DNA of 27,962 bases. Origin: Candidatus Nanohaloarchaea archaeon (GTDB lineage: Archaea; Nanohalarchaeota; Nanosalinia; Nanosalinales; Nanosalinaceae). Where the stretch lies: the NCBI GenBank assembly GCA_042217585.1, contig JBDGSJ010000001.1, positions 22,777 through 50,738 of the forward strand. Reading direction: 5' to 3'. Made by a program: the position numbers and the translations under genes. This document shows positions 1 through 25,337 of this stretch, piece by piece. The notes under the pieces are model-generated. The model was not told the DNA's origin and did no database searches. It saw nothing but the letters and a program-made list of their open reading frames with translations. Position 1 is the stretch's first letter. Every line of letters begins with the position of its first letter.

Positions 1-609
1 CAGGTCGGTGTCCATCTTCAGCCGGACCTTTGTATTCTCCCCGGTGTAGTCCACTGCGGAGTGTCTGAGAACTTTTCCGTTTCCGATCTGTGCGGTGAAC
101 TTCCACTCCGACTTCCGCCCCGCGAGCTTTCTGACTTTGAAACGTCCCTCGGCTGACCCTATACTGAGTTCAACCGGAAGGCTCTGTCCGAGATAGGCTT
201 TCTCGCCGTCTACCGGTGAGATCACGTTAAGCTCCATTCTGTCCACCCAGAAAGACTTCCGGGTGTAACCCCCGTCCTTGCATTTGGCCTCAAGGTAGTA
301 TTCTCCCGTTTTCTCCGGGGACATGTCCAGCGAGTAAGAGTGGTTTTTCCCGAGACCGGATGTCTCAGCGCCGAAACCCGGTCCGTAGAATCTCGGTCCC
401 TCGACGTGTACGTGTTCGATCTGCGAGCCGTTGCCTCCAGCGTAGCAGCTTACCTGTGCGTTCAGGACCTGGTCCGTGCTTTTCTTCCACAGGGTTTTGT
501 CGCCCGGATCAATCGTTACCTCGGGATCTGTCGCTGAACCGGCTGCCACCAGGACCGCAGCGAGAGATGTAAACAGAAGTGCCTTGGAAAGGGATTTTCG
601 GCGTGGCAT
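1..609 (-). CDS. Secreted/surface protein with beta-rich (Ig-like) domains, 3' end outside the window
   Basis: Not in the ORF track because it runs off the edge. Manual translation from ATG at 609 gives MPRRKSLSKALLFTSLAAVLVAAGSATDPEVTIDPG..., open to base 1 (203 codons). It has a signal peptide, a Cys pair and a 'PEKTGEYYLEAKC' Ig-type strand, and lies 18 nt after the stop of the upstream gene. Confidence 0.8.
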   Translation of the reverse strand, partial: MPRRKSLSKALLFTSLAAVLVAAGSATDPEVTIDPGDKTLWKKSTDQVLNAQVSCYAGGNGSQIEHVHVEGPRFYGPGFGAETSGLGKNHSYSLDMSPEKTGEYYLEAKCKDGGYTRKSFWVDRMELNVISPVDGEKAYLGQSLPVELSIGSAEGRFKVRKLAGRKSEWKFTAQIGNGKVLRHSAVDYTGENTKVRLKMDTDL

Positions 610-627
610 CTGGATAAACTTGGGTTT

Positions 628-1428
628 TCACTTCTTTAAAGCTTTAATTTTCTGGAGCAGGGTATCTCTGGCCTGATACAGGTTGAGTCCGGCCAGCAGC
701 ACCACCAGTGCGTACAGCGCTGGCAGCCTGTAATCCATTAACCGTTCCCAGAGACCGGGTGAGGTCCGTAGAACGACTTTCGTCTTTCCCATGATCGAGC
801 CGTTCTCCGCCATCACGGCGTAGGTGATGTTCTCGTCCTCGGTGTATATCGGGGCACTGTACTCGATGACTGCCTCACCTTCGTTGAATTTCTCGGAGGA
901 AGTCTTCCAGTAAGCCGGGACCCTGTACGGAATCAGTGTTCCCTGATTCACGTCGAGCCGTATCTTTGCATTGCTGGAGTTGCTCCAGACCGTTGTAGAG
1001 TCCAGCCTGTTGTCCAACACGGTCCTCTCGGTTACGTTGAAGGTGAAGTTGCCTATCTTCTCCCTCTTGCCGCAGTAGTCGAGGTAGGCGTCGGCGCGGA
1101 CCATCCCGGTGTAGTTCCGCGGCAGGTATTTCAGCTCAACGGTCCTGGCCCCGCCGGACCACAGCGGGACTCTCTGGGAGTACCTCTCTATCCGCTCTCC
1201 ACCTCCTTTCTGGAAGACGGTCCTGAGCCGGAAGGTGCAGCCGACGGATCCCTTGTTCTCGACCGTAAGGTTCACGTTCTGTATTTTCCTGACTTCTGAA
1301 TCGTGCTCCAGCGAGAAATGGGATGCTATCAGGGTGTCGTCAACGTTCAGCTGGAACCTGGCTCCGGCCGCCGGCCCTGCGAGCAGGACCGCAATAACTA
1401 CCAGAACCTGGATTTTAGCTCCAGCCAT
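628..1428 (-). CDS. Secreted Ig-like protein with C-terminal membrane anchor
   Basis: Signal peptide, 'LTVENKGS' CARDB-like strand, Cys pair, several NxS/T sequons, C-terminal hydrophobic helix followed by a Lys-rich tail. Confidence 0.8.
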   Translation of the reverse strand: MAGAKIQVLVVIAVLLAGPAAGARFQLNVDDTLIASHFSLEHDSEVRKIQNVNLTVENKGSVGCTFRLRTVFQKGGGERIERYSQRVPLWSGGARTVELKYLPRNYTGMVRADAYLDYCGKREKIGNFTFNVTERTVLDNRLDSTTVWSNSSNAKIRLDVNQGTLIPYRVPAYWKTSSEKFNEGEAVIEYSAPIYTEDENITYAVMAENGSIMGKTKVVLRTSPGLWERLMDYRLPALYALVVLLAGLNLYQARDTLLQKIKALKK

Positions 1429-1853
1429 TTTCTTCCCCAGGAGCTGGTCGGTATCTCTGTTTTTACAGCGAGCTGCCCCTCGTAGTAACCTTCCTCAGAA
1501 GCGTTGAAAGATATCTCGACGGTCCTGTTGCCCTTGAACCGGATCTTCTCCGGAACTTCAACGTGCGGAGATATATTCCCTGTCTTGCTGAACCTTACAG
1601 TTACGTTCTTCGAGGACTGAAGCTTCAGCCTTTTCCGGACCTCGGTCCTCGCAGGTATCTCGCCGAAACTCAGGTTGTCAGAAACAGTGACACCGAGGTT
1701 GTAGATCGAGTCATTCGTAAAGTTGTACTCCGTGGCGTTGGCCGACATTTTCAGTTCCATGCTTCTCTGCTCGACCAGGACCTCGTCCAGGATAAACGGT
1801 GCTGATCCCAGGACCAGCGCTACGCCGATCACTGCAGGGGCCAATCTGTTCAT
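1398..1853 (-). CDS. Small single-Ig-domain exported protein (possible minor pilin-like)
   Basis: N-terminal hydrophobic segment, 'NLSFGEIP' and 'EGYYEGQLAV' motifs, operonic spacing with both neighbours. Confidence 0.75.
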   Translation of the reverse strand: MNRLAPAVIGVALVLGSAPFILDEVLVEQRSMELKMSANATEYNFTNDSIYNLGVTVSDNLSFGEIPARTEVRKRLKLQSSKNVTVRFSKTGNISPHVEVPEKIRFKGNRTVEISFNASEEGYYEGQLAVKTEIPTSSWGRKWLELKSRFW

Positions 1854-1860
1854 TCAGGAC

Positions 1861-2979
1861 TCACCCGTACATAATCAATCCTCCTGCCAGTATTAAAACG
1901 ATGACGATGAGGTAGACCGGCAGACCGGACATCATGATGAATGCGGAGATACCGAGGAAACCCGTCACAGCTATTATCCAGACAGGGTCGATATCGAACG
2001 AGTACATCAGGACCAGAAGGGTCACCAGCGCCATCAGTATCAGCCAGTTCGGGGTGCCCCCCGCGAGAGACGGCGAGTTCTTCCCGGTCCGGTTGCCCGG
2101 GGTCTGACGGGACTGTATCTCGATGAACTTCTTTATGTCGATAGTGCTGTCAAACGCCGCCATCCCCGTGAGGAAGTTGACGGAGCCGTTTACCTTGTAT
2201 CTGCCTGCCTCAAGCTCTTTGTCAGTGTGAAGGTCGGCGCTTATAACCTTTCTGTTCCCTGGAGCGATCTCTACATTGCCGGTGGATATCTCCCCCACCT
2301 TCTTGCCTGTGTTGAGGTCGTAGACGGCAGCGTCCTTGCTGACCGTCTCCAGGGTGACTGTACCGGTATTCCGAACGATGAGGTCCACTCTCGCGTACTC
2401 GTCTCCACCTCTGAGCCCTCTAATTTCTTCCACTATCAGGTTCCTCTCCACCTCTCTTCCCGGAACCCTGAAAATAAAGGTGTACTGGGAGAGACCTATT
2501 GTACCTACCTGCTGGCCCTGGCCTTCCCGGCCCATGCTGGGCTGCAGAGATATTTTTCCGACGTGGTAGCCTGGTTCAGCGTTCCTGGGGATTCTGAGCT
2601 GGAAATCGAATTCACCCTGGACCGTTGTCTTCCCTCCACCTGTACCGACGCGGTACGAAGTGGATGGATCGATCCTGTAGCTGTCCTGTGTAAACCGGAC
2701 CCATCCTGTTATATCCTCCTGTGATGCCTGGAAGGGGCTGAAATCGTAGTTACGGCCCGAGGTTCTGACCTGGAAGAAGTTGGTGCCCGGGCTGTTGACC
2801 CTTGGGTTTATCGTGAATGGCTCTTCCGCGTTCGTAGTAATGTACACGGTCACCTGCCGGGTTTCACCCCGCTCCATCTTTCCCAGGTCCTTCACTCCCG
2901 GGGCGACACCTATGAAAGTTCCTGAAACCTGGCCCACGGCCAGAAGTACGAGAAGTGGCAGGATCAGCTTCCGGACCAT
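1861..2979 (-). CDS. Two-Ig-domain exported protein with C-terminal TM helices (DUF916/DUF3324-like architecture)
   Basis: Signal peptide; domain 1 has 'IGVAPG' and 'LRIPRNAEPGYHVGKI'; domain 2 has 'LIVRNTGTVTL' and 'AGRYKV'; C-terminal TM segments. Family resemblance judged by eye. Confidence 0.75.
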   Translation of the reverse strand: MVRKLILPLLVLLAVGQVSGTFIGVAPGVKDLGKMERGETRQVTVYITTNAEEPFTINPRVNSPGTNFFQVRTSGRNYDFSPFQASQEDITGWVRFTQDSYRIDPSTSYRVGTGGGKTTVQGEFDFQLRIPRNAEPGYHVGKISLQPSMGREGQGQQVGTIGLSQYTFIFRVPGREVERNLIVEEIRGLRGGDEYARVDLIVRNTGTVTLETVSKDAAVYDLNTGKKVGEISTGNVEIAPGNRKVISADLHTDKELEAGRYKVNGSVNFLTGMAAFDSTIDIKKFIEIQSRQTPGNRTGKNSPSLAGGTPNWLILMALVTLLVLMYSFDIDPVWIIAVTGFLGISAFIMMSGLPVYLIVIVLILAGGLIMYG

Positions 2980-3004
2980 TACGTTAAACCATTGTGTTTC
3001 AGGG

Positions 3005-3011
3005 ATTTTAT
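3005..3011 (-). promoter_or_regulatory. Putative TATA box for the leftward surface-protein operon
   Basis: TATAAAA on the minus strand 26-32 nt before the ATG at 2979, the spacing expected for a leaderless transcript. Confidence 0.5.
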
Positions 3012-3210
3012 ACCATTTTATCCGACCAGAGACCGGAAATACCGGCTCAATAGTTTACTTTTATATACTAGCCCCGGGAATTCATGGTTAGTTGAGGGGG
3101 AGGCGGTAGTCCAGAATCAGGTGATCCGCCTATTTCAAGCACGATTGCAGGCAAGGCTTACCGCCATTCAGAAGCAGGTCTTCCAGAGTTTTCTATCTGT
3201 TTTTCCAGCT

Positions 3211-3324
3211 ACAGCTTTTTTTCAGTGACACTAAATACAGTGACTGGAATCCAGTCATCGACATTTTGCAGTCGTTCGAACGACAAAATCAGTCAAAAAC
3301 ACTTCAACGAGGTGAATATCACAC
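3211..3324 (+). promoter_or_regulatory. Putative promoter, structured 5' UTR and Shine-Dalgarno of the major secreted protein
   Basis: ACAGCTTTTTTTCA (3211-3224) resembles AAAGCTTTTTACA upstream of moxR. Hairpin TGACTGG-AAT-CCAGTCA at 3241-3257, palindrome GTCGTTCGAACGAC at 3271-3284, SD GAGGTGA at 3309-3315. Confidence 0.55.
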
Positions 3325-4404
3325 TTGAAAATTAAACATCTCACCGTGGCTGTCGCAGTAATCACAGCTGTGGCGCTTACGACCACAGTATCGGCAGCCC
3401 AGGACAGCGAGGGCTCGACCTTCAACATGACGGTCTCACAGATCGTCGAGGTTGACGTCTCGCCGAACCGGATGGACTACGCCGGCGTACAGCCGGGAGA
3501 CACCAATCTGACCTCCGACAGAAACTACGGAGGCGTAGAGATAGAGAACATCGGCTCAGAGAACATTACAAACATCTGGGTCGGAGCAAGCTACCCGTCC
3601 ATCCAGGACAGCACCGAGGCATCAACGCCGTTCGGAACAGGTACGGCAGGTTCCTACGACGCAGGTAACTTCATCGTCGTGAGACCAACCTCGGAGGTGG
3701 CAGGAGTAGTTAACCCTGACGACGCAGGATCCAGCGCAAACGCTGCTGGCTACCACTTCGTCAACAGGGTCGAGTTCAACGCCACGAACGACCTTTCCTA
3801 CATCCGAACACCCGACTCAACAAGCAGGTACGGTCGTTTCAGGGTAGGAAACGAGTCGCTCTTCTGGCTGATCGACTACGGAGGATCTAACTCCGACGGA
3901 AACCTGTGTGACGGAGAAGGTTCAAGCGTCATCAGGGTAGGAAACGAACCTCACTCCAGAGAGGCACTTGGATCAGTCGACTTCAGAGACGGTTCGGGAG
4001 AGTACGTCGAGTACAGCATCCCGAGCGCCGACGAGGTCACCAGTACGTCCAGCGGAAGAAGCTACGGACAGGTCGCAGCCGAAGTCGACATCCAGAGCGA
4101 CAAGGGCAACAGGACCTACACGCTGCTGACCTACTGTGGCGGACCAGCAACGTCGGGTGGATCATCCAACGCCACTTTCGTCGTGAGATCGAGGTACAAC
4201 GTCAAGCCGCTTGACGTCACTACACAGCTCACGACTTCAGGCGGAAGGATGCAGAAGATCATGAACAACTCGATCGGTGCAGAAACTGACGAGCTTCAGC
4301 CTGGTGAGCACTTCACGCTTGAGACAGGAATTTCGGTCCCTTACGGAGTAACCAAGGGACAGGTCGGTACAGGTACACTCACCGTGTACGCCACCAACAA
4401 CTGA
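3325..4404 (+). CDS. Unanchored secreted protein, candidate major filament/pilin or surface-layer subunit
   Basis: TTG start with a strong SD; signal peptide ending about VSA-A; Ser/Thr/Gly/Asp-rich; NxS/T sequons; one Cys pair; no C-terminal TM or PGF-CTERM; ends in the beta-strand 'VPYGVTKGQVGTGTLTVYATNN'. Confidence 0.85.
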   Translation: MKIKHLTVAVAVITAVALTTTVSAAQDSEGSTFNMTVSQIVEVDVSPNRMDYAGVQPGDTNLTSDRNYGGVEIENIGSENITNIWVGASYPSIQDSTEASTPFGTGTAGSYDAGNFIVVRPTSEVAGVVNPDDAGSSANAAGYHFVNRVEFNATNDLSYIRTPDSTSRYGRFRVGNESLFWLIDYGGSNSDGNLCDGEGSSVIRVGNEPHSREALGSVDFRDGSGEYVEYSIPSADEVTSTSSGRSYGQVAAEVDIQSDKGNRTYTLLTYCGGPATSGGSSNATFVVRSRYNVKPLDVTTQLTTSGGRMQKIMNNSIGAETDELQPGEHFTLETGISVPYGVTKGQVGTGTLTVYATNN

Positions 4405-4410
4405 CACCCA

Positions 4411-4440
4411 ACCCTCCTTTCTTCTTTCCTTTATCTCTCT
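4411..4440 (+). terminator. Pyrimidine/T-rich archaeal terminator
   Basis: CCCTCCTTTTCTTCTTTCCTTTATCTCTCT directly after the stop at 4404. Confidence 0.5.
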
Positions 4441-4453
4441 AAAGCTTTTTACA
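4441..4453 (+). promoter_or_regulatory. Putative BRE/TATA for the moxR operon
   Basis: AAAGCTTTTTACA about 25-30 nt upstream of the ATG at 4476. Confidence 0.5.
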
Positions 4454-4475
4454 CAGCCGCCGCAATTCTACTTGT

Positions 4476-5486
4476 ATGGCGACGAAGTACGCTGATCTCT
4501 CCGAGAAAGAGATGGAGCAGAAGGCCGAGGAGTTCTCGGAAATGATCCACGACATGGAGCAGATGGTCCAGAACGGTTTCGTGGGGCAGGAGGACGTGAT
4601 ACACAAGGTCCTGCTCTCGATCGTCGCCGGGGGCAACATACTTCTTGAAGGGGTCCCGGGGCTGGGCAAGTCGTTCCTGGTGGAGACCCTTTCCCGGGTC
4701 GTGGACGATGCGGAGATGCACAGGATACAGTTCACGCCGGACCTCCTGCCTTCGGACATCACAGGTGTCGAGGCGTACAACGAGGACAAGGGTTTCTACG
4801 TTGAGAAGGGACCGATCTTTGCCAACTTCATACTTGCGGACGAGATCAACCGTGCGCCGCCGAAGGTCCAGTCCGCGATGCTTGAGGCTATGCAGGAGCA
4901 CAAGGTATCGATCGGCGACGAGACCTTCGACCTCCCGGAGCCGTTCTTCACGATGGCGACCCAGAACCCTGTTGAGCAGGGCGGAACCTACCCGCTTCCC
5001 GAGGCGCAGATAGACCGGTTCATCTTCAAGGTCTACCTGGATTACCCGGAGAAGCAGAACGAGCAGAAGATCATCGACATGAACGCGAACATACTGGACG
5101 AGGGCGACTTCGGGGTCCACCCGGTGGTCGACAAGCAGGACGTCCTGAATATCCAGGAGTTCTCGAAGGAGGTCACGGTCTCGGACGAGATCAAGGCGTA
5201 CATCGTGGACCTCGTCGACGCGTCGAGGAACCCTGAGGACTACGGCATGGAGCTGAGCGAGTACATCGACTGGGGTTGCACGCCGAGGGCCTCGATTAAC
5301 CTTGCGCTCGCGGGAAGGGCGAACGCGCTTTACAACGGGAGGCATTACGTGACGCCGGAGGATATCCGGGCTGTGATAAAGGACGTCTTCATCCACAGGA
5401 TAATACTTAACTACGAGGGCGAGGCGCAGGGCATAGAGGTGGAGGACATAATCAACAACATCGTGGACCGGGTCCCGGTGAGGTGA
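4476..5486 (+). CDS. moxR: MoxR-family AAA+ ATPase
   Basis: Walker A 'LLEGVPGLGKS', 'RIQFTPDLLPSDITG', Walker B 'LADEINRAPPKVQSAMLEAMQE', 'ATQNPVEQGGTYPLPEAQIDRF'. Confidence 0.97.
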   Translation: MATKYADLSEKEMEQKAEEFSEMIHDMEQMVQNGFVGQEDVIHKVLLSIVAGGNILLEGVPGLGKSFLVETLSRVVDDAEMHRIQFTPDLLPSDITGVEAYNEDKGFYVEKGPIFANFILADEINRAPPKVQSAMLEAMQEHKVSIGDETFDLPEPFFTMATQNPVEQGGTYPLPEAQIDRFIFKVYLDYPEKQNEQKIIDMNANILDEGDFGVHPVVDKQDVLNIQEFSKEVTVSDEIKAYIVDLVDASRNPEDYGMELSEYIDWGCTPRASINLALAGRANALYNGRHYVTPEDIRAVIKDVFIHRIILNYEGEAQGIEVEDIINNIVDRVPVR

Positions 5487-5490
5487 AGTC

Positions 5491-6378
5491 GTGCGCTCGC
5501 AGGACATGATGGACCGGGAGGAGCTCAGGGATGAGATAGATGTGGAGGTGAAGCGGGTTTCGGACCTCTTCAGGTTCATCATGAAGTTCAAGCGACATTT
5601 CCAGCCATCCGGGGTCGAGTTCTCCGGGCTGCGGCAGTACCTGCCGAGCGACGACGCTTCCAGGATCGACTGGAAGAACTCGGCGGGTTCCGACGACCTG
5701 TACGTGGACCAGTTCGAGGAGGAGGTTGACATGGACGCCTTTATCGTGCTGGATGTTTCTGACAGCATGATCTTCGGGACCGCGGATAAGCTGAAGTCGG
5801 AGTACGCCGCGGTCGTGGGGGCGGCGCTGGCTTTCGCCTCGATCGATGCGGGGATCGACGTCGGTTTCGGGATGTGGGGCGAGGACAGCCTGATACGGAA
5901 TCCTTCCTCCACCAACTCGCAGTACCAGAGGATGCTTGACGAGCTGTCGGACCCGGAGAACTACGGCGGAAAGTTCGACCTGGACCGTGCGCTGACCGAC
6001 GTGATCGGGAAAATAAAGGAGGATACCGCCATATTCATAATTTCAGATTTCATCAACGTGAAAGGTGACTGGAAGACGAAGCTGACTCTTTCCAGCATGA
6101 AGTTCCGGCACGTGATGAGCGTGATGGTCCGGGACCTGAGGGATTACAGGATGCCGGAGAACGGGAACATGAGGTTCGAGTCGCCCGACGGGTCCGGCCA
6201 GATAGCGCTGAACACGGATGTGGAGGCGGAGGAGTTCAACCGGGAGGCGAAGAGGAGAGAGGAGGAGATGGAGGAGAAGCTGAAGGGTTCCGGGTCCAGC
6301 TTCCTGAAGATCGATACGCGGGACAACTTCGCGGCGAAGTTCGCGGAGTTCTTCGAGGAGGATGAGGGCTCATGGTGA
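5491..6378 (+). CDS. DUF58 (vWA-like) protein
   Basis: 'GVEFSGLRQYLPSDDASRIDWKNSA', 'IVLDVSDSMIFG', 'IISDF'; usual position after moxR. Start is GTG 5491 or ATG 5506. Confidence 0.93.
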   Translation: MRSQDMMDREELRDEIDVEVKRVSDLFRFIMKFKRHFQPSGVEFSGLRQYLPSDDASRIDWKNSAGSDDLYVDQFEEEVDMDAFIVLDVSDSMIFGTADKLKSEYAAVVGAALAFASIDAGIDVGFGMWGEDSLIRNPSSTNSQYQRMLDELSDPENYGGKFDLDRALTDVIGKIKEDTAIFIISDFINVKGDWKTKLTLSSMKFRHVMSVMVRDLRDYRMPENGNMRFESPDGSGQIALNTDVEAEEFNREAKRREEEMEEKLKGSGSSFLKIDTRDNFAAKFAEFFEEDEGSW

Positions 6379-7328
6379 GCAAGATCGTCTTCACGGACCG
6401 TTTCTCCAACATACTTTTCCTGGTGAACGGGATCGCGGTCCTGCTTTTCCTCGCGGCGAAGCAGAAGAAGGAGCAGAGGGCGATGAAGTTCGGGAACTAC
6501 GAGACCCTGAAGAGGGTCGCCGGCGGAAACTTCCTGAAATCCAGTAACGTCCTTCTCCTGCTCAGGATACTGGGGCTGACCCTGCTGATAGTCGGTATCT
6601 CAAACCCTGTCCTGATCAGCGAGGAACCGTCGGGGAACTCGGACTACGTGATCGCCATCGACACCTCCAGCTCAATGCTGACGTCGGATATCGAACCGAC
6701 CCGGTTCCAGGCCGCCAAGGACGTTTCCCGCCAGTTCGTCTCCCGGCTGGGGAACAACACCCGGGCAGGGATAGTCTCTTTCTCCGGAAGGGTGAAGAAA
6801 GAGCAGCAGCTGACCTCTGACAAGGAACTGCTGGCCGCCACCATAAAGAATATCTCGACAGGGGAGACCGCAGGTACGGCCATCGGAGACGCCCTGATAA
6901 CTTCGTCCTCCATGCTCCTGTCATCGGAGCGGAACCGGACCGTGATACTGATAACGGACGGCAGGAACAACGTCGGGACCTCTCTCAACGAGTCACTGGA
7001 TTACGTCATGAACCACAACGTCACGGTGAACACGGTAGGACTCGGGACCGACAATAGCTCCCGGCAGGAGTTCGGCATAGTCAACAGGACGAACGCCTCA
7101 CAGGCTGATTTCCCCGGGCTTGACCAGGAAGGGCTGAAGAGGATAGCGAACGCGACCGGCGGAGAGTTCGTACTCGCCACTAACCGGGCCGACCTTGAGG
7201 AAGCGATCTCGTCGATGAACCTCGTGACTGTCAGGCAGGATATCTCAAGGTACCTCATATATGTCGCCCTGGTCTTCCTGCTGGGAGAGTGGGTCCTGGG
7301 AAGCACCCGTTACAGCATCATACCGTAA
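6372..7328 (+). CDS. BatA-like membrane vWA domain protein
   Basis: Two N-terminal TM helices, MIDAS 'DTSSSM', 'TAIGDA', 'LITDG', 'LKRIANATGGEF', C-terminal TM. Many NxT/S sequons imply an extracellular vWA domain. Confidence 0.93.
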   Translation: MVSKIVFTDRFSNILFLVNGIAVLLFLAAKQKKEQRAMKFGNYETLKRVAGGNFLKSSNVLLLLRILGLTLLIVGISNPVLISEEPSGNSDYVIAIDTSSSMLTSDIEPTRFQAAKDVSRQFVSRLGNNTRAGIVSFSGRVKKEQQLTSDKELLAATIKNISTGETAGTAIGDALITSSSMLLSSERNRTVILITDGRNNVGTSLNESLDYVMNHNVTVNTVGLGTDNSSRQEFGIVNRTNASQADFPGLDQEGLKRIANATGGEFVLATNRADLEEAISSMNLVTVRQDISRYLIYVALVFLLGEWVLGSTRYSIIP

Positions 7329-7365
7329 AAACCCTTTTCTTTACCTGTCCGAAATTAATCACTGG

Positions 7366-8832
7366 ATGACCGAAGAAGTCGAGATAGACGAGGCAGTGGA
7401 TGTGCTGGAGGGCTCAGTTGAGGACCTTGAGGAGTTCCTGGATGAGAAAAGCCTGGAACTGGGCACCCTGAGAGAGATACTTGAAGCTGAGAAGGAGATG
7501 AAGGACCGGAAAACCGCCAGGTCACTCCTGGAGAGGCAGATCGCCAGGAAGCGGATCAGAGAGGACGTGAGGCTGGCGAGAGAGGAGATACGGGAGGTCC
7601 ACGACGCGATAGAGGACTTGGAGGACACCGAGAATCTCGAACGGGAGGATGACGGAGAGGAACTCGGACCCCAGAAGCTGGCAGAGATAGTGGGCAGAAC
7701 TGTCGAGGACCTGAAAGAAGAGGTCAGGAATAGAGAACTCGGTCTTGAACAGCTCGAGAGGATACTTGACACCGAGAAAAAAGTGAAGGACCGGAAGACC
7801 GCGAAGGATTTCCTGAGAGAGGAGATAACCCGGCTGAAACTGGAGAAGGATCTTTTCCGGGCCGAGGACGATATCGATCAGGTAGAGGAAGACCTGGAGA
7901 GAATCCGATCCGATTCAGATGAGTTCGTGGATGAGAACATACCCGAAGAAGAGGAAACAGAGGAAGGAGAGGCAAAAAAGGAGGAAACCGTGGATGAAAA
8001 TGAGGGATCCGAGGGAAGGAAGAAAGAGCTCATCAGGGGGATGGACGTTGAGATGTCTGATAAAGAACTGGAGAAGCTCTCCGTGGAGGAGATAGAGAGT
8101 ATAAAAGAGGAGAAGAACCGTCGGGAGGAGCTGATCGGGAAGCTCGCCGATGAAGGGTTCGAGGAAGACGAGCTCAGGGAGGCGAGCACCAGCGACCTTG
8201 AAAAGCTGGAGGACTCCCTCAGAGAGCAGGAAGCCGGCGAAGAGAATACTGAAGAGGAAGAAGCCGAAAGGGAAGATCCTGGAGAGGACCTCTCCGGCCC
8301 GGAAGTGAGCGAGGATTCCTCCGGGAAAGAGATAGAGGAGGGAGAGGTCGAGGAGCTACAGGAGGAGGCCGAGGAGGACCTGGAACTGCTCCAGGGCGCC
8401 AGAAGAGACGCCGATGAAGATGAGGATGAGGACGGGGGAAAGCTCGGTTTCCAGGAGAGAGTGGAAGAGTTCCAGGAGAAGATAGAGAAGCTCGTTCCCC
8501 GGAGAGGAGAGGAGGACGAGGATTCCGGTGTCACGGAGGAAGAGAAGATGATCAAGCTTCTGGAGAGCTACAGGGAGCTCGAGGAGAAGAAGAGCGCGAT
8601 CAAGACGGCACAGGTAATGAAGGCGTACCTCGAGAAGGAGCTGGGCGTGGACCGGGAGATGACGTACAAGGAGCTGGCGGATTACATGGAGGGCCGGGAC
8701 GGAAGGAACTTCGAGGTCCTCAGCGATTTCCTGATGAAGGTCCACAGGGAGATCTATACCCAGAAGATGGTCCCGCACGATATGGAGGAGATCATCGACA
8801 CCTCCATCGACACGATAGAGGAGATGGAGTGA
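7366..8832 (+). CDS. Highly acidic coiled-coil protein with a duplicated N-terminal helical repeat and a DUF4129/BatD-like C-terminus
   Basis: Start moved to ATG 7366, after the vWA stop. Very Glu/Asp-rich; two '..EK..KDRKTA' repeats; C-terminal 'MKAYLEKELGVDREMTYKEL'. Confidence 0.8.
   Translation: MTEEVEIDEAVDVLEGSVEDLEEFLDEKSLELGTLREILEAEKEMKDRKTARSLLERQIARKRIREDVRLAREEIREVHDAIEDLEDTENLEREDDGEELGPQKLAEIVGRTVEDLKEEVRNRELGLEQLERILDTEKKVKDRKTAKDFLREEITRLKLEKDLFRAEDDIDQVEEDLERIRSDSDEFVDENIPEEEETEEGEAKKEETVDENEGSEGRKKELIRGMDVEMSDKELEKLSVEEIESIKEEKNRREELIGKLADEGFEEDELREASTSDLEKLEDSLREQEAGEENTEEEEAEREDPGEDLSGPEVSEDSSGKEIEEGEVEELQEEAEEDLELLQGARRDADEDEDEDGGKLGFQERVEEFQEKIEKLVPRRGEEDEDSGVTEEEKMIKLLESYRELEEKKSAIKTAQVMKAYLEKELGVDREMTYKELADYMEGRDGRNFEVLSDFLMKVHREIYTQKMVPHDMEEIIDTSIDTIEEME
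7402..7910 (+). repeat. Intragenic tandem duplication with a period of about 95 aa (two copies)
   Basis: VLEGSVEDLEEFLDEKSLELGTLREILEAEKEMKDRKTARSLLERQI versus IVGRTVEDLKEEVRNRELGLEQLERILDTEKKVKDRKTAKDFLREEI; DNA TGAAGGACCGGAA is present in both copies. Confidence 0.8.
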
Positions 8833-8833
8833 T

Positions 8834-10387
8834 TCAGAAAGGCAGGAGGGAGGTCTCGATGAGACCGTAGTTCGAGGCCAGGTAGATCATTATGAAGACT
8901 TCGCCGACTATAAGCACGACGAGCGGCACGTTGACGAGCGTGGAGTCCAGTCCGTAACGTTTTCTCATGAGTGCGTAGAGGACGAGGACCGCGGTCCAGC
9001 TTATCGCGATGATCGGTACTCTCTGCTCGGGCGGGATCAACTGCGGTCCCCTAACAACAGAGACCCTCAGGCTGGAGAACGCGTAGGCGCCCTGGTCCGT
9101 TGAGATTATCAGCGTCGTGTTACACGAGGTAAGAGTTTCAGAAGCGTTCACAGATAGCCGGAGGGAGTCCGTTCCGTTCACCGGGATGCGGGAGATGGTC
9201 TCCGAGCTAACATGGCCGCATTCCCCGACGTTCTGGAGACGTGCGGTCACGTTTGTCAGGTTCTTCCTGCCCGTGTTCTCCACGAGCACCGGGATGGTCT
9301 CCGGCGCACCTCTCTGGACCCTGAGGTAGCCCGGTGACTCGGAGATAGCTACCGACGCCGGGAACTTCGGTCTGCGTGTCACCCTGAGCCGGAAGTAGTC
9401 CAGGTCGACATCGTTGTCGGGAGTGCTCACCCTGACGGGGATGAGGTAGGTCCCGGGCTCGGCGTCCTCCGGCGGGGTTATGAAGACCTGCCGCTGTATC
9501 TTAGTCCCAGGTGTGAGGTTGTTTACTGAGGCAGTGCTGACCTCCCAGCCCGGCGCCAGCGCCTGTACCTCCGGTAGTATCGATAGATTGGAGACCGATG
9601 TGTTTCCGAGATTCGTCAGGTTCAGGGTTATGGGACGGCTCTGTCCCCGGGTGACGTTGTACCTTGCCTCCACCGGCTCCGTGTCGACCGAGAGGACCGG
9701 CTCGGGTTCCGGAACAGGCTCTGGAACGGGCTCCGGGACTGGTTCCGGTACAGGGGTCTGTCCCGGGGCGTCGTTGTTCCCGGGGATGGTCTGGTTCGTC
9801 TCCTCATCCCCCGGCTCCGTGACGTTGGCGGGCTCGGTCTTGTTGGTCGTCTGGTTGCCGGTCTGGTTGACTCCTCCTTCCTCCGTGGCGTTCAATACCC
9901 TGAACTCCCTGTAGCTGGTGTATGAGAAGTTCGAGTAAAGATCCGTGCCGTTCTTCTCTATGCAGCGCACGTTTATCGAGGTCCTGCCGACGTAGTACCC
10001 TGGAGTCTTGTTCTCCATGAACTTTGCCTGGTACACCACTTCATTCCCTAATTTAACACGGCTGTAGTTCGCTCCAGTGTAGTTACGGACCGCAGGTCCG
10101 AAACTACGGCCGTTGTACGGGTTTCCTCCGACATACCTGACGCGGAGCCATTCAACGGAGACGTTGGACCTGAGGTTACCGTCGTTCTCCATCACAAGGG
10201 TGAAGAAGCCGCTGGTGTTGATGGGTATAGTGCCATTCCCTGGTGTCGTGAAACGCTCCAGCCTCACGTTGCATCCGTAAGTCAGGTTCACACCGAATTC
10301 TGAGCCCGCGCCAGAGGCGGACAGGACCCCTGTCAGGGCCACTGGCACCAGCACCAGCAGGAACACGATACTCTTCCTCAGGTCCAT
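8834..10387 (-). CDS. Membrane-anchored multi-Ig (NEW3/CARDB-like) surface protein
   Basis: ATG 10387 overlaps the upstream stop (TGATG) and has GGAGG upstream. Signal peptide; 'LTNLGNT', 'ITPPEDAEPGTYLIPV', 'VENTGRKNLTNV'; Pro-rich linker; two C-terminal TM helices. Confidence 0.85.
   Translation of the reverse strand: MDLRKSIVFLLVLVPVALTGVLSASGAGSEFGVNLTYGCNVRLERFTTPGNGTIPINTSGFFTLVMENDGNLRSNVSVEWLRVRYVGGNPYNGRSFGPAVRNYTGANYSRVKLGNEVVYQAKFMENKTPGYYVGRTSINVRCIEKNGTDLYSNFSYTSYREFRVLNATEEGGVNQTGNQTTNKTEPANVTEPGDEETNQTIPGNNDAPGQTPVPEPVPEPVPEPVPEPEPVLSVDTEPVEARYNVTRGQSRPITLNLTNLGNTSVSNLSILPEVQALAPGWEVSTASVNNLTPGTKIQRQVFITPPEDAEPGTYLIPVRVSTPDNDVDLDYFRLRVTRRPKFPASVAISESPGYLRVQRGAPETIPVLVENTGRKNLTNVTARLQNVGECGHVSSETISRIPVNGTDSLRLSVNASETLTSCNTTLIISTDQGAYAFSSLRVSVVRGPQLIPPEQRVPIIAISWTAVLVLYALMRKRYGLDSTLVNVPLVVLIVGEVFIMIYLASNYGLIETSLLPF
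9698..9754 (-). repeat. (PVPE)4-PEP proline-rich linker repeat
   Basis: 12-bp-period repeat with diversified synonymous codons, encoding PVPEPVPEPVPEPVPEPEP. Confidence 0.9.
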
Positions 10388-11142
10388 CACAGCAACCTCC
10401 ACAGGTAGAGGACCGATAGACCGGTCCCGAGAGCCATGAGGTAGGTCACGGGATCTATCCCCCCGCCTCCCTCTTCTTTTCCTGGCTGTTTTTCCTGACC
10501 GTAAACGGTTTTGTTGTCGACCTCGAGGACGAGCCTGTCGGTGCTGTTCTCCAGTTCCCTCCGGTCTCTGTCCAACGATGCCCGATCTTCACCTGTTTTC
10601 CCTGTTCCGTTCCCTTTCCCTCCTGTATAGCCCCTGTCCACCGTCTGGTTCTCAAGGCTTAGGGCTCCTACGACCTCGACCGTGTAGCCGTACTCCCTCA
10701 CCTGCACTATCGACTGCCTGCCCTCTCTTCCAGCGGCATCCACCGAGAGAGGTACTGCCTCGACCCTTACACTGAAACCGAGGCGGTCCCGGGACCTCTG
10801 CTCCGATATATCTGCGTAGAAGGTCCTATCCTTTATCTTGACGTACCTCCCATCCCCTGCGCTGTACCAGCCAGATCCCTCGGGGTCCTCTGTTACCTTT
10901 GAGGGCTCCAGGACGAAGCTTCGGTCCGGGAAATCCACCTCCATGCCTCTCGGAGTCTCCGCGGATAGATTGACCCTCAGGGCCTGGTCGCTGGGATTTA
11001 TCAGTCCAAGCCTGAAGCTCTGGTTCAGAGCGCGCGTCTCTGCGCTGTCCTGGTACTGGAATGCGGAGAAGCTGTAGCCTGCCGAGAGCTGCACCATGGC
11101 GAGGACCGAGACCAGTATCGCTATCTCTCTGATAGCTTTCAC
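10387..11142 (-). CDS. Exported single-Ig protein with linker and C-terminal anchor
   Basis: GTG start overlapping the upstream stop; signal peptide; 'LINPSDQALRV'; C-terminal 'GGGGIDPVTYLMALGTGLSVLYLWRLL'. Confidence 0.8.
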   Translation of the reverse strand: MKAIREIAILVSVLAMVQLSAGYSFSAFQYQDSAETRALNQSFRLGLINPSDQALRVNLSAETPRGMEVDFPDRSFVLEPSKVTEDPEGSGWYSAGDGRYVKIKDRTFYADISEQRSRDRLGFSVRVEAVPLSVDAAGREGRQSIVQVREYGYTVEVVGALSLENQTVDRGYTGGKGNGTGKTGEDRASLDRDRRELENSTDRLVLEVDNKTVYGQEKQPGKEEGGGGIDPVTYLMALGTGLSVLYLWRLL

Positions 11143-12545
11143 CTCGTCGAGTTCGCCTTGAAGTACAGCTTTCCCCTGTAACCCCCGCTGTATATCCCGA
11201 GGGGGACGTCGATCCAGTAGAAGGTCTCGACTTCCTCACCAGGAGAGATGCTCGAGGCGACGTGCTGGTAGTTCTCTGATAGAGGTTTTTCCGTCGAGGG
11301 ATTCTGGCTGGTGCTGTAGCTGACGTTACCGATCCCTATGCTGTACCGGTCGGGGAGGCGCCGGGATCTCAGGTCCGTCCCCCGTATCCAGAGGTCATCC
11401 ACCGTGATGCTTGAGGAGCGGACCGTCACGTTGTATGCAAGCCGGCTGTTTTTCTTGGCGGGCTGGTTCTCCTGCCCGGGATCAAGGACCCCGAAGTTCA
11501 CGGTGTCGAACGTCAGGTCTATCAGGACCGGCTTCTTTATCCGCACCTGGTGGTCCTCCGAATCGTTCTGCTCGACGCTCGAGAGGTCCGAGTAGCCAGT
11601 CGAGTCAAGGTAGTGGTACGAGTCGAGCTGACCGGTGGCGTTCACGGTCCAGTTCACGTAGCATGAATCGCCCTTCCCGAGGTCCTGCGAACAGCTTCTC
11701 CTGTTAGGACCCACAGTGTGGAACGGGGAGCCTGAGTTCTCGGGTATCAATGTATCTGCGGTCGAGGACTCGTTGTACCTTACTGCGAGGTCCACCTGGC
11801 CACACAGCCCCATCTCGCAGGTCACCGTGGCGTTCATGGAGAAATGCTTGTACCGGGAGAGGATCGTGTCCCCCGGCGGTTCATCCAGGGTCACGTTGAG
11901 GAACCCGTACTTCGTGATATCCAGCTCGTGGAAGTCCTGACTGCCTGTCTCCTGGGATGTATCGTTCACGAGGAAATGCTGGTCCAGCAGGGTGGAGCTG
12001 TTCTGTGTAACGTTGACCACGTAGCTCGCGTACATCGTGTCGTTACCGTCCTTGTGGTCGAGGAAGCCTCCTGATGTATCCCATGACAGCCTCCGGTCCG
12101 TGAAGCTGTAGCCGCTGTAGCTCTCCCCTGATATGTTGTACCAGCCAGCGGTCACCTCCCACGTGGCGTTCAGGCCGTCATGGTAAAGTTCATCTCCCGG
12201 ATCGATGTCCCACACCGAGGACCCATCGTTCTCTATCACGAACGTGAACCTGTACTGCCTCTCCCTGCTGGACTGCGAGATCGTGAAGGTCCTGTTCAGC
12301 CCTGATTCCAGCAGGTCGCCGCCGGTCCTGTCCCTCCCTGTCGCAGAAACGTCGAATATCCTTATATCCGTGATATTCGGTACCGCCGTACCGGTTCCGA
12401 AGCTGTCCATGACCGGCTTCTCGTCCAGCTCCCGGACCGAGTAACCCACCTTTTCAGGCGGCTCACCGCCCTCCATGACAGCGACCAACGCCAGCACCGC
12501 GGTGAAAAACAAAACTAAAGCGGCTTTCGTCCTGATATATCTCAC
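11139..12545 (-). CDS. Multi-domain secreted protein with a Cys-rich domain and a C-terminal pilin-like domain (candidate tip adhesin)
   Basis: N-terminal hydrophobic segment; 'TCEMGLCG...SC...GDSCYVNWTVNATG'; C-terminal domain similar to the 3325-4404 protein; many sequons. Confidence 0.85.
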   Translation of the reverse strand: MRYIRTKAALVLFFTAVLALVAVMEGGEPPEKVGYSVRELDEKPVMDSFGTGTAVPNITDIRIFDVSATGRDRTGGDLLESGLNRTFTISQSSRERQYRFTFVIENDGSSVWDIDPGDELYHDGLNATWEVTAGWYNISGESYSGYSFTDRRLSWDTSGGFLDHKDGNDTMYASYVVNVTQNSSTLLDQHFLVNDTSQETGSQDFHELDITKYGFLNVTLDEPPGDTILSRYKHFSMNATVTCEMGLCGQVDLAVRYNESSTADTLIPENSGSPFHTVGPNRRSCSQDLGKGDSCYVNWTVNATGQLDSYHYLDSTGYSDLSSVEQNDSEDHQVRIKKPVLIDLTFDTVNFGVLDPGQENQPAKKNSRLAYNVTVRSSSITVDDLWIRGTDLRSRRLPDRYSIGIGNVSYSTSQNPSTEKPLSENYQHVASSISPGEEVETFYWIDVPLGIYSGGYRGKLYFKANSTR

Positions 12546-12986
12546 CTACATGTACCTCACCGAGAGACCGGCCGATATACCCAGGAGAGATGCCAGGACC
12601 AGGTACTGGTATAGCCTGAAATCCTGCCGGGTCCTCGACTCCAGCGCCTCGAGCCGTGTTATGGACTCGTTGGCCTCCCTGAAGACCGCCACCGCGGTCC
12701 GGGCGCTCCTTCCCACGCTGGTGCCTTTAACGTCGGCGAGGGCCTCGAGACTGTTCTGAAACCGGTCCGTGCCTATTATCCCCTGGACCCGGTCCAGTTT
12801 CTTGCTGGTTTTTTCGATCTCCTCGAGGTTGGACTGGAGTGTCATCGCCGCATGGACGGAAACCACCAGCAGAGCTGTGGAGGCGATTATCATTATCTTG
12901 CCGAGTTCCTTCCGGTCCAGGCTGTACCGGGACTTCAGGTCCTCCAGCGACGAGTCCAGTCCCTCCACACGTTCGAGAAGGTTCAC
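12546..12986 (-). CDS. Two-TM membrane protein with a helical loop
   Basis: Two hydrophobic segments; abuts the next gene; TTTAAA box upstream. Confidence 0.75.
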   Translation of the reverse strand: MNLLERVEGLDSSLEDLKSRYSLDRKELGKIMIIASTALLVVSVHAAMTLQSNLEEIEKTSKKLDRVQGIIGTDRFQNSLEALADVKGTSVGRSARTAVAVFREANESITRLEALESRTRQDFRLYQYLVLASLLGISAGLSVRYM

Positions 12987-13071: not shown

Positions 13072-13476
13072 ATGGCGATAAAAATATGGATGGTCTTCGA
13101 GGCGGTTGCCGCGACTGAGGAGGACCTCGAGAAGTCTCTGGAGGAACATGTCAAGAAGCTCAGGGAGGAAGAAGAGGGCCTCGAGGTCGTGAGCGAGGAA
13201 TCAGACGAGACGGAGAAGATAGAGAATCCTGCGCCGCAGATAGATGAAGGTTTCTCAAGGGTTACCGAGGTCGTGGTGGAGGTAGAGAAGTTCTCAAAGG
13301 CCGTCAGCATCGTGCTCAACTATGGTCCTACTTACGTCCAGATCGAGGAGCCGGAGGAATGGACCATGGATATGAAGGACGCCCAGGAATCCCTTCAGAA
13401 GATGGCGACGAAGATGCACCAGTATGCCCAGCAGGGCGCGGGAGGGGTAATAATCTCAAAACCGTCAGAAGGATGA
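13072..13476 (+). CDS. Acidic hypothetical protein
   Basis: Host-like codon usage and acidity; alpha/beta pattern; 'LNYGPTYVQIEEP'. Function not recognised. Confidence 0.8.
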   Translation: MAIKIWMVFEAVAATEEDLEKSLEEHVKKLREEEEGLEVVSEESDETEKIENPAPQIDEGFSRVTEVVVEVEKFSKAVSIVLNYGPTYVQIEEPEEWTMDMKDAQESLQKMATKMHQYAQQGAGGVIISKPSEG

Positions 13477-14390: not shown

Positions 14391-14686
14391 TCGGAGACTG
14401 TTATCGGGAAGTACTGGACCTCCCCGTCGACGCTGTTTCTGCAGACGCATCTCAGGTCGGAGGCGTTCCTGACGTTCTCCGAGAGGCTGACATTTATCAC
14501 TCCCGGCTCGAAGCAGTCAACCGTCCCGTTGAACGTCTTGTTCTGTCTGATGGACTGCTCCACATCCCTGCACATGCCGGGTTTCTCCCTGGCGGCAGAA
14601 TCAGTGTAGATGAAGAGCCCTGAACCGAGCGCCAGCCCCAGGACCGCGGCCACAGCCAGCACCAGTTCTCTTCTCAAATCATTCAC
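14387..14686 (-). CDS. Small membrane-anchored Cys-rich protein
   Basis: N-terminal TM, four Cys, several sequons; overlaps the upstream gene. Confidence 0.7.
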   Translation of the reverse strand: MNDLRRELVLAVAAVLGLALGSGLFIYTDSAAREKPGMCRDVEQSIRQNKTFNGTVDCFEPGVINVSLSENVRNASDLRCVCRNSVDGEVQYFPITVSD

Positions 14687-16588: not shown

Positions 16589-16646
16589 CTCAGGGCACCC
16601 ATGGGGACCTGGTATATACTGGACTGCCCCAACTTCTTAAAACGAT

Positions 16647-24938: not shown

Positions 24939-25142
24939 GTGGGCGGAAGGCTCTACAGGTCCGAGGACGACTACATGCTGTGCGGGGTCTGCGGAGGGAT
25001 CGCAGAGGTCTACGACCTCGACCCCTCGCTGGTCCGGCTCGTCACCCTGCTGCTCGTTTTCTCAGGTGTCTCGCCTCTCCTGTACCTCGTCGCCTGCCTG
25101 ATCATTCCGAAGGAGAGCGAGATTGAAGCCGAGGAATCTTGA
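24939..25142 (+). CDS. pspC: PspC domain membrane protein
   Basis: 'LYRSEDDYMLCGVCGGIAEVYDLDPSLVRL...LYLVACLIIP'. Confidence 0.9.
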   Translation: MGGRLYRSEDDYMLCGVCGGIAEVYDLDPSLVRLVTLLLVFSGVSPLLYLVACLIIPKESEIEAEES

Positions 25143-25151
25143 GACATCACC

Positions 25152-25159
25152 TTTATATC
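25152..25159 (+). promoter_or_regulatory. TATA box of the peptide/cyclase cassette
   Basis: TTTATATC 22-29 nt before ATG 25181, the same spacing as other genes in the window. Confidence 0.6.
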
Positions 25160-25180
25160 AAGAGACGAGAAAGGGGATTT

Positions 25181-25327: not shown

Positions 25328-25337
25328 GGGTGAAATA

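Follow-up and report, generated by a model that had tools for sequence, protein, structure and literature searches.

A conserved gene cluster was found in a stretch of 27,962 nucleotides (the window; C1:22777-50738) from the genome of a Candidatus (Ca.) Nanohaloarchaea archaeon, which comprises about 0.98 Mb in 38 contigs. According to the listing of open reading frames (ORFs), window positions 1-12986 hold a cluster of about 13 genes that encode exported or membrane-anchored proteins, a secreted protein (g5) and an ATPase module. The genes are one conserved unit, and their arrangement recurs far beyond chance. The best reading of g5 is a Sec-exported, unanchored, putatively glycosylated protein of about 35 kDa that is the main product of the cluster. 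I tentatively propose that the cluster is a chaperone-assisted fibre or adhesin-display system, which is a serious possibility rather than a probable one. The likely use of such a fibre would be attachment to a host cell or matrix.

The gene map was taken from the ORF listing, the membrane and signal segments from a hydropathy scan, and the families from Pfam and NCBIfam searches that covered 14 proteins of the window. The g5 gene (3325-4404) lies on the plus strand together with a module of three genes, which encode a MoxR-type AAA+ ATPase (4476-5486), a VWA-like DUF58 protein (5491-6378) and a BatA-like VWA membrane protein (6372-7328). Two minus-strand operons with exported or anchored, beta-rich products flank this group. 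An earlier reading made from the letters alone (the sequence-only reading) had described this layout, and it was confirmed by the ORFs, hydropathy and Pfam. Signal-like N-terminal hydrophobic segments were found in g1, g2, g3, g4, g5, g10, g11 and g12. C-terminal membrane helices number one in g2 and two in g10 by the hydropathy scan, and three in g4 by its AlphaFold2 model; the tail of g11 is under the cut-off of the scan, which found no C-terminal helix in g5, g3 or g12. The sequence-only reading had called the exported proteins immunoglobulin (Ig)-like; this holds for g10 and g4, through a family match and a structure model described below, and g1, g2 and g11 have no Ig-like support. Pfam gave no family for g1 (N-terminal part), g2, g5, g11, g12 and g13. 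The claim that no type IV or usher machinery belongs to the cluster stood. A family scan placed the T2SSE/PilB, Peptidase_A24 and exosortase-family copies of the genome on contigs C5, C6, C11, C22 and C25, and none on the contig carrying the window.

Is this arrangement common in nanohaloarchaea? Profiles of g5 and of the neighbouring g4 (1861-2979, minus strand) found the two families in 33 (G000 included) and 37 of 70 genomes of the class, respectively, and the presence of one tracks that of the other. Extending the genome search to the phylum gave the class set again. The g5 homologues with a named source are nanohaloarchaeal. Stretches of up to about 20 kb around the matches on longer contigs gave 20 nanohaloarchaeal loci, which were searched by tblastn with the proteins of the window. 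In all 20 loci, g4 and g5 are adjacent and divergent. The VWA protein and g10 are also present in 20/20, two of the g10 genes being partial at a contig edge. MoxR, DUF58 and g2 were each found in 19 loci, and g12, g3 and g1 in 17 each; g11 gave matches in 14 and g13 in 9. Synteny was also seen for g9, and for g13b and g14 wherever the fetched stretch reaches them. Gene order and orientation are identical throughout the 20 loci. Most missing genes fall where the stretch or the contig ends, and one locus (L040) is without several genes. The conserved block extends to about 14390 in nanohaloarchaea and the left operon runs beyond the window, so that the extent given by the sequence-only reading (1-12986) had to be widened on both sides.

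Four closed genomes (G039, G053, G058 and G065) have no g5, no g4 and no cluster-type MoxR; thus, the cluster is not universal in the class. Two further assemblies, G023 and G026, gave little or no signal for g5 and none for g4, yet the cluster is present on contigs ending at g5, a position at which many assemblies break. The cluster-type MoxR paralogue (61-88% identical to the window copy) is found only together with the cluster. The other paralogue shares about 43-50% identity and is encoded elsewhere (on C9 in the source genome). It might be argued that unrelated surface-protein genes merely lie beside a Bat-like MoxR operon, as no family can be assigned to most of the proteins and DPANN genomes commonly encode Ig-like surface proteins. 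This idea is hardly credible. It is refuted by the order and orientation in 20/20 loci, by their recurrence across phylum-labelled contigs, and by the fact that g4, g5 and the cluster-type MoxR are present or absent together.

The penetrance of the cluster outside the nanohaloarchaea was also assessed. From 1.84 billion representatives, a profile search returned 332 relatives of g5 at E <= 0.001. Divergent g5 members that do not look halophilic were put in a sub-alignment (A3), which then led to 55 g5 loci in public species genomes; the reading frames of these loci were searched with profiles of the nanohaloarchaeal orthologues. The record titles name Aenigmatarchaeota, Altiarchaeota, Woesearchaeota, Micrarchaeota, 'Nanobdellati' and Nanohalarchaeota, as well as Methanosarcinales (n = 2) and Methanobacteriota (n = 1). 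At least one further cluster family is present in 39 of the 55 loci, and g4 or MoxR in 36. The families found are MoxR (27 loci), DUF58 and VWA (24 each), g4 (18), g2 and g3 (17 each), g1 (16), g10 (15), g9 (13), g11 and g12 (10 each) and g13 (1), the last being nearly confined to nanohaloarchaea. In summary, the core of the cluster is found again in contigs that bear the labels Aenigmatarchaeota, Altiarchaeota, Woesearchaeota and Micrarchaeota. The sequence-only reading had expected the genes to co-occur as a unit, which the 20 nanohaloarchaeal loci and 39 of the 55 others bear out, and its estimate of the range was too narrow, as several DPANN phylum labels are involved. Most of the 55 loci have two to four tandem g5 paralogues (one copy in 13 loci, two in 32, three in seven and four in three), and MoxR is often doubled. 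In 16 loci the g5 genes stand alone, some of them on long stretches; thus, additional pairs of g5 genes occur outside the cluster. In the literature searched on MoxR in Nanohaloarchaeota and DPANN, no paper was found that describes the cluster.

The g5 gene encodes 359 amino acid residues with a Sec-type signal peptide, eight N-glycosylation sequons and no membrane anchor. In its AlphaFold2 model, with a predicted local distance difference test score (pLDDT) of 80 and a predicted template modelling score (pTM) of 0.81, the body exceeds 90 and residues 1-40 are of low confidence. This N-terminal part includes an amphipathic strand (about residues 31-39), which AlphaFold2 left at pLDDT 41-61. 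The strand lies a few residues past the signal-peptide cleavage region and ahead of the beta-rich body. A pattern based on a V-D-I-S-P-like strand as the anchor motif was located in 96 of 118 family members and not in the other 22. In these 96 sequences, positions -10, -8 and -6 from the anchor motif are V, I, L, M or F in 99, 97 and 100%, respectively, and the polar positions between them are hydrophobic in 15% or fewer. I propose that g5 is the major fibre subunit, and such a conserved strand, unplaced in the model, speaks for this.

Fold searches with g5 gave weak leads in the same direction. Foldseek found nothing in the PDB at E <= 0.001, and the g5 profile matched only NqrC among PDB sequences (E 0.056 or weaker), with no TasA match. 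Pfam has no match for g5, Peptidase_M73, the S-layer domains and PF13731 (WxL) included. A fold search with VIA-align gave weak matches, among which those to fibre subunits (the TasA/CalY, AbpA, TLP-1, cannulae, threads and tafi group) cover most of g5; no WxL chain is among the matches listed. The Atlas structure neighbours of g5 include a CalY/Peptidase_M73 cluster. As a side observation, an Atlas language-model search placed unnamed Chloroflexota and Elusimicrobiota clusters (187 and 220 residues) near g5 with a score of 0.93, and the nearest named cluster, a WxL family from Minisyncoccota, scored 0.77, which is the level of chance.

The divergent neighbour g4 encodes 372 residues with a signal peptide. 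Its AlphaFold2 model (32 sequences, pLDDT 87.8) has two beta-sandwich domains (about residues 21-172 and 181-282) as well as a linker that is disordered and three membrane helices at the C-terminus. The best Foldseek matches in the PDB are to the WxLIP protein of Enterococcus faecium (9i25_C, E 2.3e-11; 9i1y_A, E 1.2e-10), and chaperone-usher chaperones are also among the matches. Against WxLIP_HBD (PF11797), g4 scored 22 bits, under the cut-off of 28.9, and 3 of 32 members of the g4 family matched this model at E <= 0.01; PF06030 (DUF916) gave no match in g4. A system of this kind would escape a Pfam-based screen for WxL systems because g4 lies below the Pfam thresholds. ETV6 fusion constructs, which a profile search of PDB sequences had offered as relatives of g4, were rejected as spurious, the match running through a short repeated stretch only. 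Judged by its model, g4 really does resemble in fold the DUF916/DUF3324 partner of the Firmicute WxL clusters, the type of membrane partner that the sequence-only reading had called for. By analogy, I propose that g4 is a membrane-anchored chaperone or dock for g5.

Published data on two orthologous clusters show that the cluster is expressed, that g5 alone is massively released, and that the g4 orthologue is retained by the cell. In Ca. Nanohalococcus occultus, the g5 homologue P0011 (39% identical) corresponds to SVXNc_0246, with SVXNc_0245 (MoxR), SVXNc_0247 (g4) and SVXNc_0249 (g2) as neighbours; SVXNc_0252 (g1) and SVXNc_0238 (g12) belong to the same cluster. Transcript levels, in reads per kilobase per million mapped reads (RPKM), were taken from part 2 of the eight parts of Table_1 of PMC10266531. 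Among the rows of this part, SVXNc_0246 is the highest (55,024), above EF-1 alpha (SVXNc_0187, 41,878). The same rows give 1,382 for MoxR, 662 for g4, 608 for g12, 448 for g2 and 2,383 for g1, and 3,458 and 747 for the annotated S-layer genes SVXNc_0478 and SVXNc_0977. In Ca. Nanohalobium constans, the g5 orthologue is LC1Nh_0225 (28% identical), which was assigned through a neighbour gene and the listed DNA. Dataset S2a of PMC7443923, in the first two of its seven parts (314 rows, LC1Nh_0001-0328), gives for this protein 13 peptides in the biomass (protein abundance index (PAI) 1.67) and 244 in the supernatant (PAI 9); the runner-up supernatant value in these rows is 57 peptides (PAI 4). For g4 (LC1Nh_0226), the same rows have 10 biomass peptides (PAI 1.67) and none in the supernatant. 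Similarly, g3 (LC1Nh_0227) has 16 and 0, g1 (LC1Nh_0229) 23 and 0, g2 (LC1Nh_0228) 6 and 2, and MoxR (LC1Nh_0221) 19 and 11.

The surroundings of the g5 gene may agree with such levels. In the 345-bp divergent intergenic region between g4 and g5 (2980-3324), TTTATATA was read directly at 3060-3067, and GAGGTGA at 3309-3315, nine bases upstream of the TTG start of g5. The spacer after g5 on the plus strand (4405-4475) is T-rich, with an oligo-T run at about 4445-4450, and is a possible terminator between g5 and the MoxR genes. The GAGGTGA before g5 and the T-rich tract after its stop codon are consistent with strong, separate expression of g5, and a putative terminator at this place would fit the 40-fold drop in transcript from SVXNc_0246 to SVXNc_0245.

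An abundant surface protein without an anchor may also be an S-layer protein. In that case g5 would form the canopy lattice and be held to the membrane by g4, g10 and other anchored proteins, like SlaB and SlaA in Sulfolobales. The transcript of the g5 orthologue, above EF-1 alpha and 16 times that of the annotated S-layer gene SVXNc_0478 in the rows covered, speaks for this, as does the position of an unanchored g5 beside membrane-anchored Ig-like proteins. Assemblies often break at g5, as they do at variable surface genes. An S-layer has been seen by electron microscopy on nanohaloarchaeal cells, and the parts of the literature consulted identify no lattice protein; for Ig-like proteins in MoxR/vWA neighbourhoods, Makarova et al. 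2015 (PMC5898192), in the sections consulted, used the term 'predicted S-layer proteins'. The proteome rows point the other way, since LC1Nh_0225 reaches only a moderate level in the biomass, where its PAI equals that of g4, but dominates the supernatant. Moreover, the size of g5, about 35 kDa, is below the 40-200 kDa quoted for S-layer proteins in the sources at hand, and no S-layer Pfam domain was found in the 14 proteins. The four closed genomes do without the whole cluster. A Micrarchaeon has a different S-layer protein of 101 kDa according to the portion of the literature consulted, yet one Micrarchaeota-labelled contig carries the cluster. The motifs of g5 are conserved across phylum labels. 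Conservation of motifs across phyla is unusual for S-layer proteins. The sequence-only reading had named a lattice-forming g5 as the case that would overturn it; this case is weakened and now appears unlikely, although it keeps a real share of the probability.

The release of g5 could also mean that it does not polymerise and is a soluble or loosely displayed factor, for example a binder of host surfaces or glycans, docked by g4 and the other anchored proteins. Its orthologue dominates the supernatant in the rows covered, the monomer model is compact (pTM 0.81), and WxLIP proteins were first described, in the available part of the source, as binders of WxL proteins that link surfaces. Such a factor would leave the near-invariant, unplaced amphipathic strand at the N-terminus of g5 unexplained, and expression above EF-1 alpha would be extreme for it. 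The tandem paralogues, and the g5-like module on giant g12 proteins described next, fit co-assembly better. I regard a non-polymerising g5 as rather unlikely.

The fibre or adhesin-display reading gains a further element from g12 (11139-12545, minus strand), which encodes 468 residues with an N-terminal hydrophobic segment, 17 sequons and no C-terminal helix. In nanohaloarchaea, g12 is 439-609 residues long; conservation is confined to the C-terminal 250-420 residues, behind a variable N-terminal part. In the window copy, the conserved module at the C-terminus spans about residues 325-468. At other DPANN loci, the same module closes reading frames of about 1,770 to 2,900 residues. When the last 190 residues of g12 were aligned with the g5 family by hhalign, collinear matches appeared at g5 26-92 (88.8%) and 322-358 (87.1%). 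The C-terminal module thus resembles the core of g5 minus the large insert of g5, and the two are probably related. The Atlas structure neighbours of g12 are DUF11/CARDB proteins. By its sequence, g12 fits an adhesin-bearing subunit.

The three genes that follow g5 encode a module of their own. The MoxR protein, which is predicted to be cytoplasmic, matches AAA_3 (E 1.5e-57) and AAA_lid_2 and has intact Walker A and B motifs; the DUF58 protein, also cytoplasmic, matches its family at E 2e-34. The VWA protein matches VWA_2 (E 1.7e-20); it scored 24.3 bits against the BatA N-terminal domain, just below the cut-off of 25.9, and 6.4e-23 against VWA_BatA_Lepto of NCBIfam, below the cut-off of that model. 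MoxR, DUF58 and a BatA-type VWA membrane protein are thus consecutive, as in a Bat-type module, and BatB-E were not found in the 14 proteins by Pfam or NCBIfam. The VWA protein consists of an N-terminal helix pair, the VWA domain and a C-terminal helix. A basic, almost invariant loop (R-A-M-K-F-G-N-Y-E-T-L) joins the helix pair, the VWA domain has DxSxS in 20/20 sequences, and nine sequons are present. From the charge distribution, the loop would be cytoplasmic and the VWA domain outside, because of the positive-inside rule. I propose that MoxR and DUF58 in the cytoplasm are linked through this loop to an outward domain with a metal-ion-dependent adhesion site (MIDAS).

Some variation of the module was seen. 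In L039 (6599-9379, minus strand) and L052 (7916-10714, minus strand), and likewise in G047:C25, G032:C1 and G054:C66, MoxR is a single open frame of about 926-951 residues, in which about 590 extra residues split the two MoxR halves after about residue 170-212; the insertion looks like an intein. In L044, MoxR and DUF58 are about 2.4 kb apart. Ca. Nanohalobium constans has three small genes, LC1Nh_0222-0224, between MoxR and the g5 orthologue (PMC7443923 supplement). Thus, the MoxR-g5 junction tolerates insertions. Two of these three genes presumably resemble an addiction pair of the CopG/RelE type.

The same module raises the possibility that the cluster is a MoxR-powered machine for secretion or membrane remodelling, with g5 as its cargo. 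Bat-type operons and the proposed new secretion system linked to arCOG01314 likewise have MoxR, vWA and membrane or secreted Ig-like proteins in one neighbourhood, from which such a system was predicted (Makarova et al. 2015, PMC5898192, in the sections consulted). The MoxR orthologue is annotated as belonging to that putative system, and the cluster-specific MoxR is co-inherited with the cluster. However, arCOG01314/DUF4350 (PF14258), the hallmark, DUF1616 (PF07760) and BatB-E were not detected among the 14 proteins, and the neighbourhood found here is defined by g5 and g4, which are absent from the published descriptions as far as these were at hand. No polytopic channel-like protein was found in the cluster by the hydropathy scan, and no new translocon is needed because g5 and the other exported proteins carry Sec-type signal peptides. 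A secretion machine is therefore quite improbable.

For the fibre reading, the closest comparison is the WxL (Elr) pilus known from Enterococcus faecalis and from other Bacilli. According to the available part of a bioRxiv preprint of October 2026 (10.64898/2026.10.17.759780), the DUF916/DUF3324 membrane protein ElrE is a chaperone; it provides the complementing strand for the WxL pilin ElrD and so nucleates donor-strand polymerisation of this pilin, and ElrA is a tip adhesin with a C-terminal pilin module. The same part limits the Elr system to Bacillota on the basis of a Pfam-based screen, the details of which may bear on that limit. The two systems share a two-domain beta-sandwich membrane protein (ElrE/WxLIP; g4) beside one or more small secreted subunits with an N-terminal amphipathic strand, and a large modular protein in which a subunit-type module stands C-terminal to a variable payload (ElrA; g12). 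Neither has an usher or type IV machinery, and g4 has both the two beta-sandwich domains and the C-terminal membrane anchor of the WxL partner. In contrast, g5 is without PF13731, larger and endowed with a big inserted domain, and PF13731 has no match within 10 kb of g4 among the 14 proteins at E <= 0.1. Moreover, g4 is under the PF11797 threshold, has no PF06030 and carries three membrane helices instead of one. LPxTG/sortase anchoring is also missing from the cluster, where anchoring would use membrane helices; the sole LPXTG_anchor match is in g14 (E 0.032; NCBIfam/Pfam). Elr has no counterpart of the MoxR-DUF58-VWA module and the further anchored proteins linked to it here, and the host here is an archaeon.

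Other fibres share fewer traits with the cluster. The donor-strand fibres without an usher (TasA/CalY, AbpA bundling pili, TLP-1, cannulae, threads and tafi) are described, in the sources as far as available, as secreted beta-sandwich subunits whose N-terminal strand completes a neighbour, and AlphaFold likewise leaves that strand disordered in TLP-1. These sources describe no WxLIP-like chaperone and no MoxR module, and call the cannulae chaperone-free. The cluster differs from chaperone-usher pili in that no usher and no PapD_N match were found in the 14 proteins and the proposed chaperone is membrane-anchored rather than soluble. Archaea are not known to have an outer membrane. From type IV pili and archaella it differs in the signal peptide of g5, which is Sec-type and not class III, and in that the PilB/TadC-type and prepilin peptidase matches are on other contigs. 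By sequence criteria, the cluster belongs neither to the WxL family nor to the TasA or chaperone-usher family. It may, by analogy, work like a WxL pilus.

The proposed fibre draws on the WxLIP-like g4, the conserved and unplaced strand of g5, the leads to fibre subunits, the tandem paralogues, the g5-like module of g12, and the split of the proteome into released and retained proteins. In this model, g5 would leave the membrane with an unsatisfied beta-sandwich core. The helix-anchored g4, with its WxLIP/ElrE fold, would hold g5 at the outer face of the membrane, and g5 subunits would then join head to tail, each inserting its N-terminal amphipathic strand into the next subunit. The result would be a thin, non-covalent and readily shed fibre. 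Proteins of the g12 type, with the g5-like module behind a variable and sometimes giant N-terminal part, would be built in as adhesin-bearing subunits, and the membrane-anchored g10, g2, g11 and g1 would hold the base of the fibre. In the cytoplasm, MoxR and DUF58 would act on the basic loop of the BatA-like VWA protein, the MIDAS-bearing domain of which would face outward, and the three proteins together may gate assembly, anchoring or adhesion. Some of these roles were already in the sequence-only reading. That g5 is the major component agrees with the abundance and release of its orthologues in the published data, and an adhesin role of g12 suits its g5-related module behind a variable part. 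The assignment of g3 as a minor subunit, and of g2, g10 and g11 as chaperones or anchors, gained no specific support, and the paralogy among these proteins mostly vanished after the signal peptides were trimmed.

Several observations weigh against the fibre model. The 'donor' strand of g5 has an internal counterpart in g12 by hhalign; thus, it may be the ordinary first strand of a domain and not a donor. The first hhalign comparison had suggested paralogy of g4 with g11 (93%), g1 with g4 (92%) and g5 with g10 (90%), and these links were lost on trimming of the signal peptides (1%, 47% and 24%, respectively); the link of the g12 C-terminus to g5 is the only one left standing. The fold scores that connect g5 with fibre subunits are weak, and g5 is not a WxL domain by Pfam. 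The known donor-strand pili need no ATPase, and the tightly linked MoxR-DUF58-VWA module is therefore left unexplained by the analogy with pili. Furthermore, the very high expression of g5 fits an S-layer equally well, and the expression and proteome data come from orthologues that are 39% and 28% identical, in other species, and from a part of each table.

The remaining genes of the cluster are as follows. The left operon contains g1, g2 and g3 besides g4, all on the minus strand. Within the window, g1 (1-609) is the N-terminal part (203 residues) of an exported membrane protein of about 900 residues, which runs past the left edge and across a scaffold gap. In the full protein, a C-terminal membrane helix is accompanied by an acidic tail on the cytoplasmic side and by a C2H2 zinc finger. 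The two sides of the gap overlap in sequence: the translated end of g1 in the window (…VDYTGENTKVRLKMDTDL) recurs at the start of the next piece. This overlap is hidden by the run of N just left of the window (G000:C1:22677-22776 and L002 10379-12583), so that the gap is an artefact of the assembly within a single gene, which another run of N interrupts further along. The g2 gene (628-1428) encodes 266 residues with a signal peptide and one C-terminal membrane helix; hydrophobic and polar residues alternate at its mature N-terminus. The g3 gene (1398-1853; 151 residues) has an N-terminal hydrophobic segment (signal or anchor), eight sequons and only weak PapD-like or choice-of-anchor matches (E 0.003-0.009; Pfam/NCBIfam).

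To the right of the VWA gene, g9 (7261-8832, plus strand) encodes a cytoplasmic protein with 34% D+E, rich in charged repeats. Its true start is probably near 7366, and one g9 orthologue begins with C2H2 zinc fingers. On the minus strand, g10 (8834-10402) encodes 522 residues with a signal peptide, Ig-type domains (NPCBM_assoc, E 1.9e-11; CARDB, E 3.3e-5; Pfam), a linker rich in proline, 25 sequons and two membrane helices at the C-terminus. It is followed by g11 (10387-11142; 251 residues), with a signal peptide, an SFG-type N-terminal motif and a C-terminal hydrophobic tail, and, beyond g12, by the small g13 (12546-12986; 146 residues), with two hydrophobic segments. Two genes on the plus strand lie outside 1-12986. 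The first, g13b (13072-13476), encodes an acidic protein of 134 residues, and the product of the second, g14 (13359-14390), combines an exported domain with a membrane helix and, on the cytoplasmic side, a winged-helix DUF7343 domain (Pfam E 6.5e-16). The two genes are conserved beside the cluster in nanohaloarchaea. The g14 protein may be a regulator of the cluster that is tethered to the membrane.

Some observations were made in the neighbourhood. Two small proteins encoded on contig C1, about 6-7 kb to the left of the window (L002 5600-6013 and 6015-6680, both on the minus strand), have class III (type IV pilin-like) N-termini, …QASLEFFFMIG… and …QSSLEFFLVVG…, with a MinD/FleN-like ATPase and a phosphoenolpyruvate (PEP) synthase nearby. 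In Ca. Nanohalococcus occultus, the corresponding neighbourhood continues to TadC, CpaF and exosortase. Within the window, two tandem genes for TruD (tRNA pseudouridine synthase D; 19112-20218 and 20211-21404, both on the minus strand) each match the full Pfam model (E 2e-110 and 6e-109). An asparagine synthase-like gene and a methyltransferase gene lie in a stretch (25000-27000) where the GC content falls to 0.42-0.47, compared with about 0.56 elsewhere. A run of glycosyltransferase genes (14679-19094) lies upstream of this low-GC stretch, which may be an acquired glycosylation islet.

All non-ATPase parts of the cluster are still annotated as 'hypothetical', and the attachment of these episymbionts is described as little known. 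The cluster is a testable candidate for a surface fibre of DPANN archaea, or else for the nanohaloarchaeal S-layer. It connects the Bat-like MoxR-DUF58-VWA module, which has long lacked an explanation, with a defined product outside the cell, and a fibre would extend the chaperone-guided donor-strand pathway of Gram-positive bacteria to archaea. In its boldest form, which I consider doubtful, the proposal is that of an ancient DPANN organelle: a donor-strand fibre with a WxLIP-like chaperone and a modular or giant adhesin tip, coupled to MoxR-DUF58 across the membrane by the outward VWA protein and serving as the main structure for attachment to host or matrix. If this is true, it would be a third chaperone-assisted donor-strand route, beside the chaperone-usher and WxL pili, and, unlike every known donor-strand pilus, its assembly or adhesion would be switchable with ATP.

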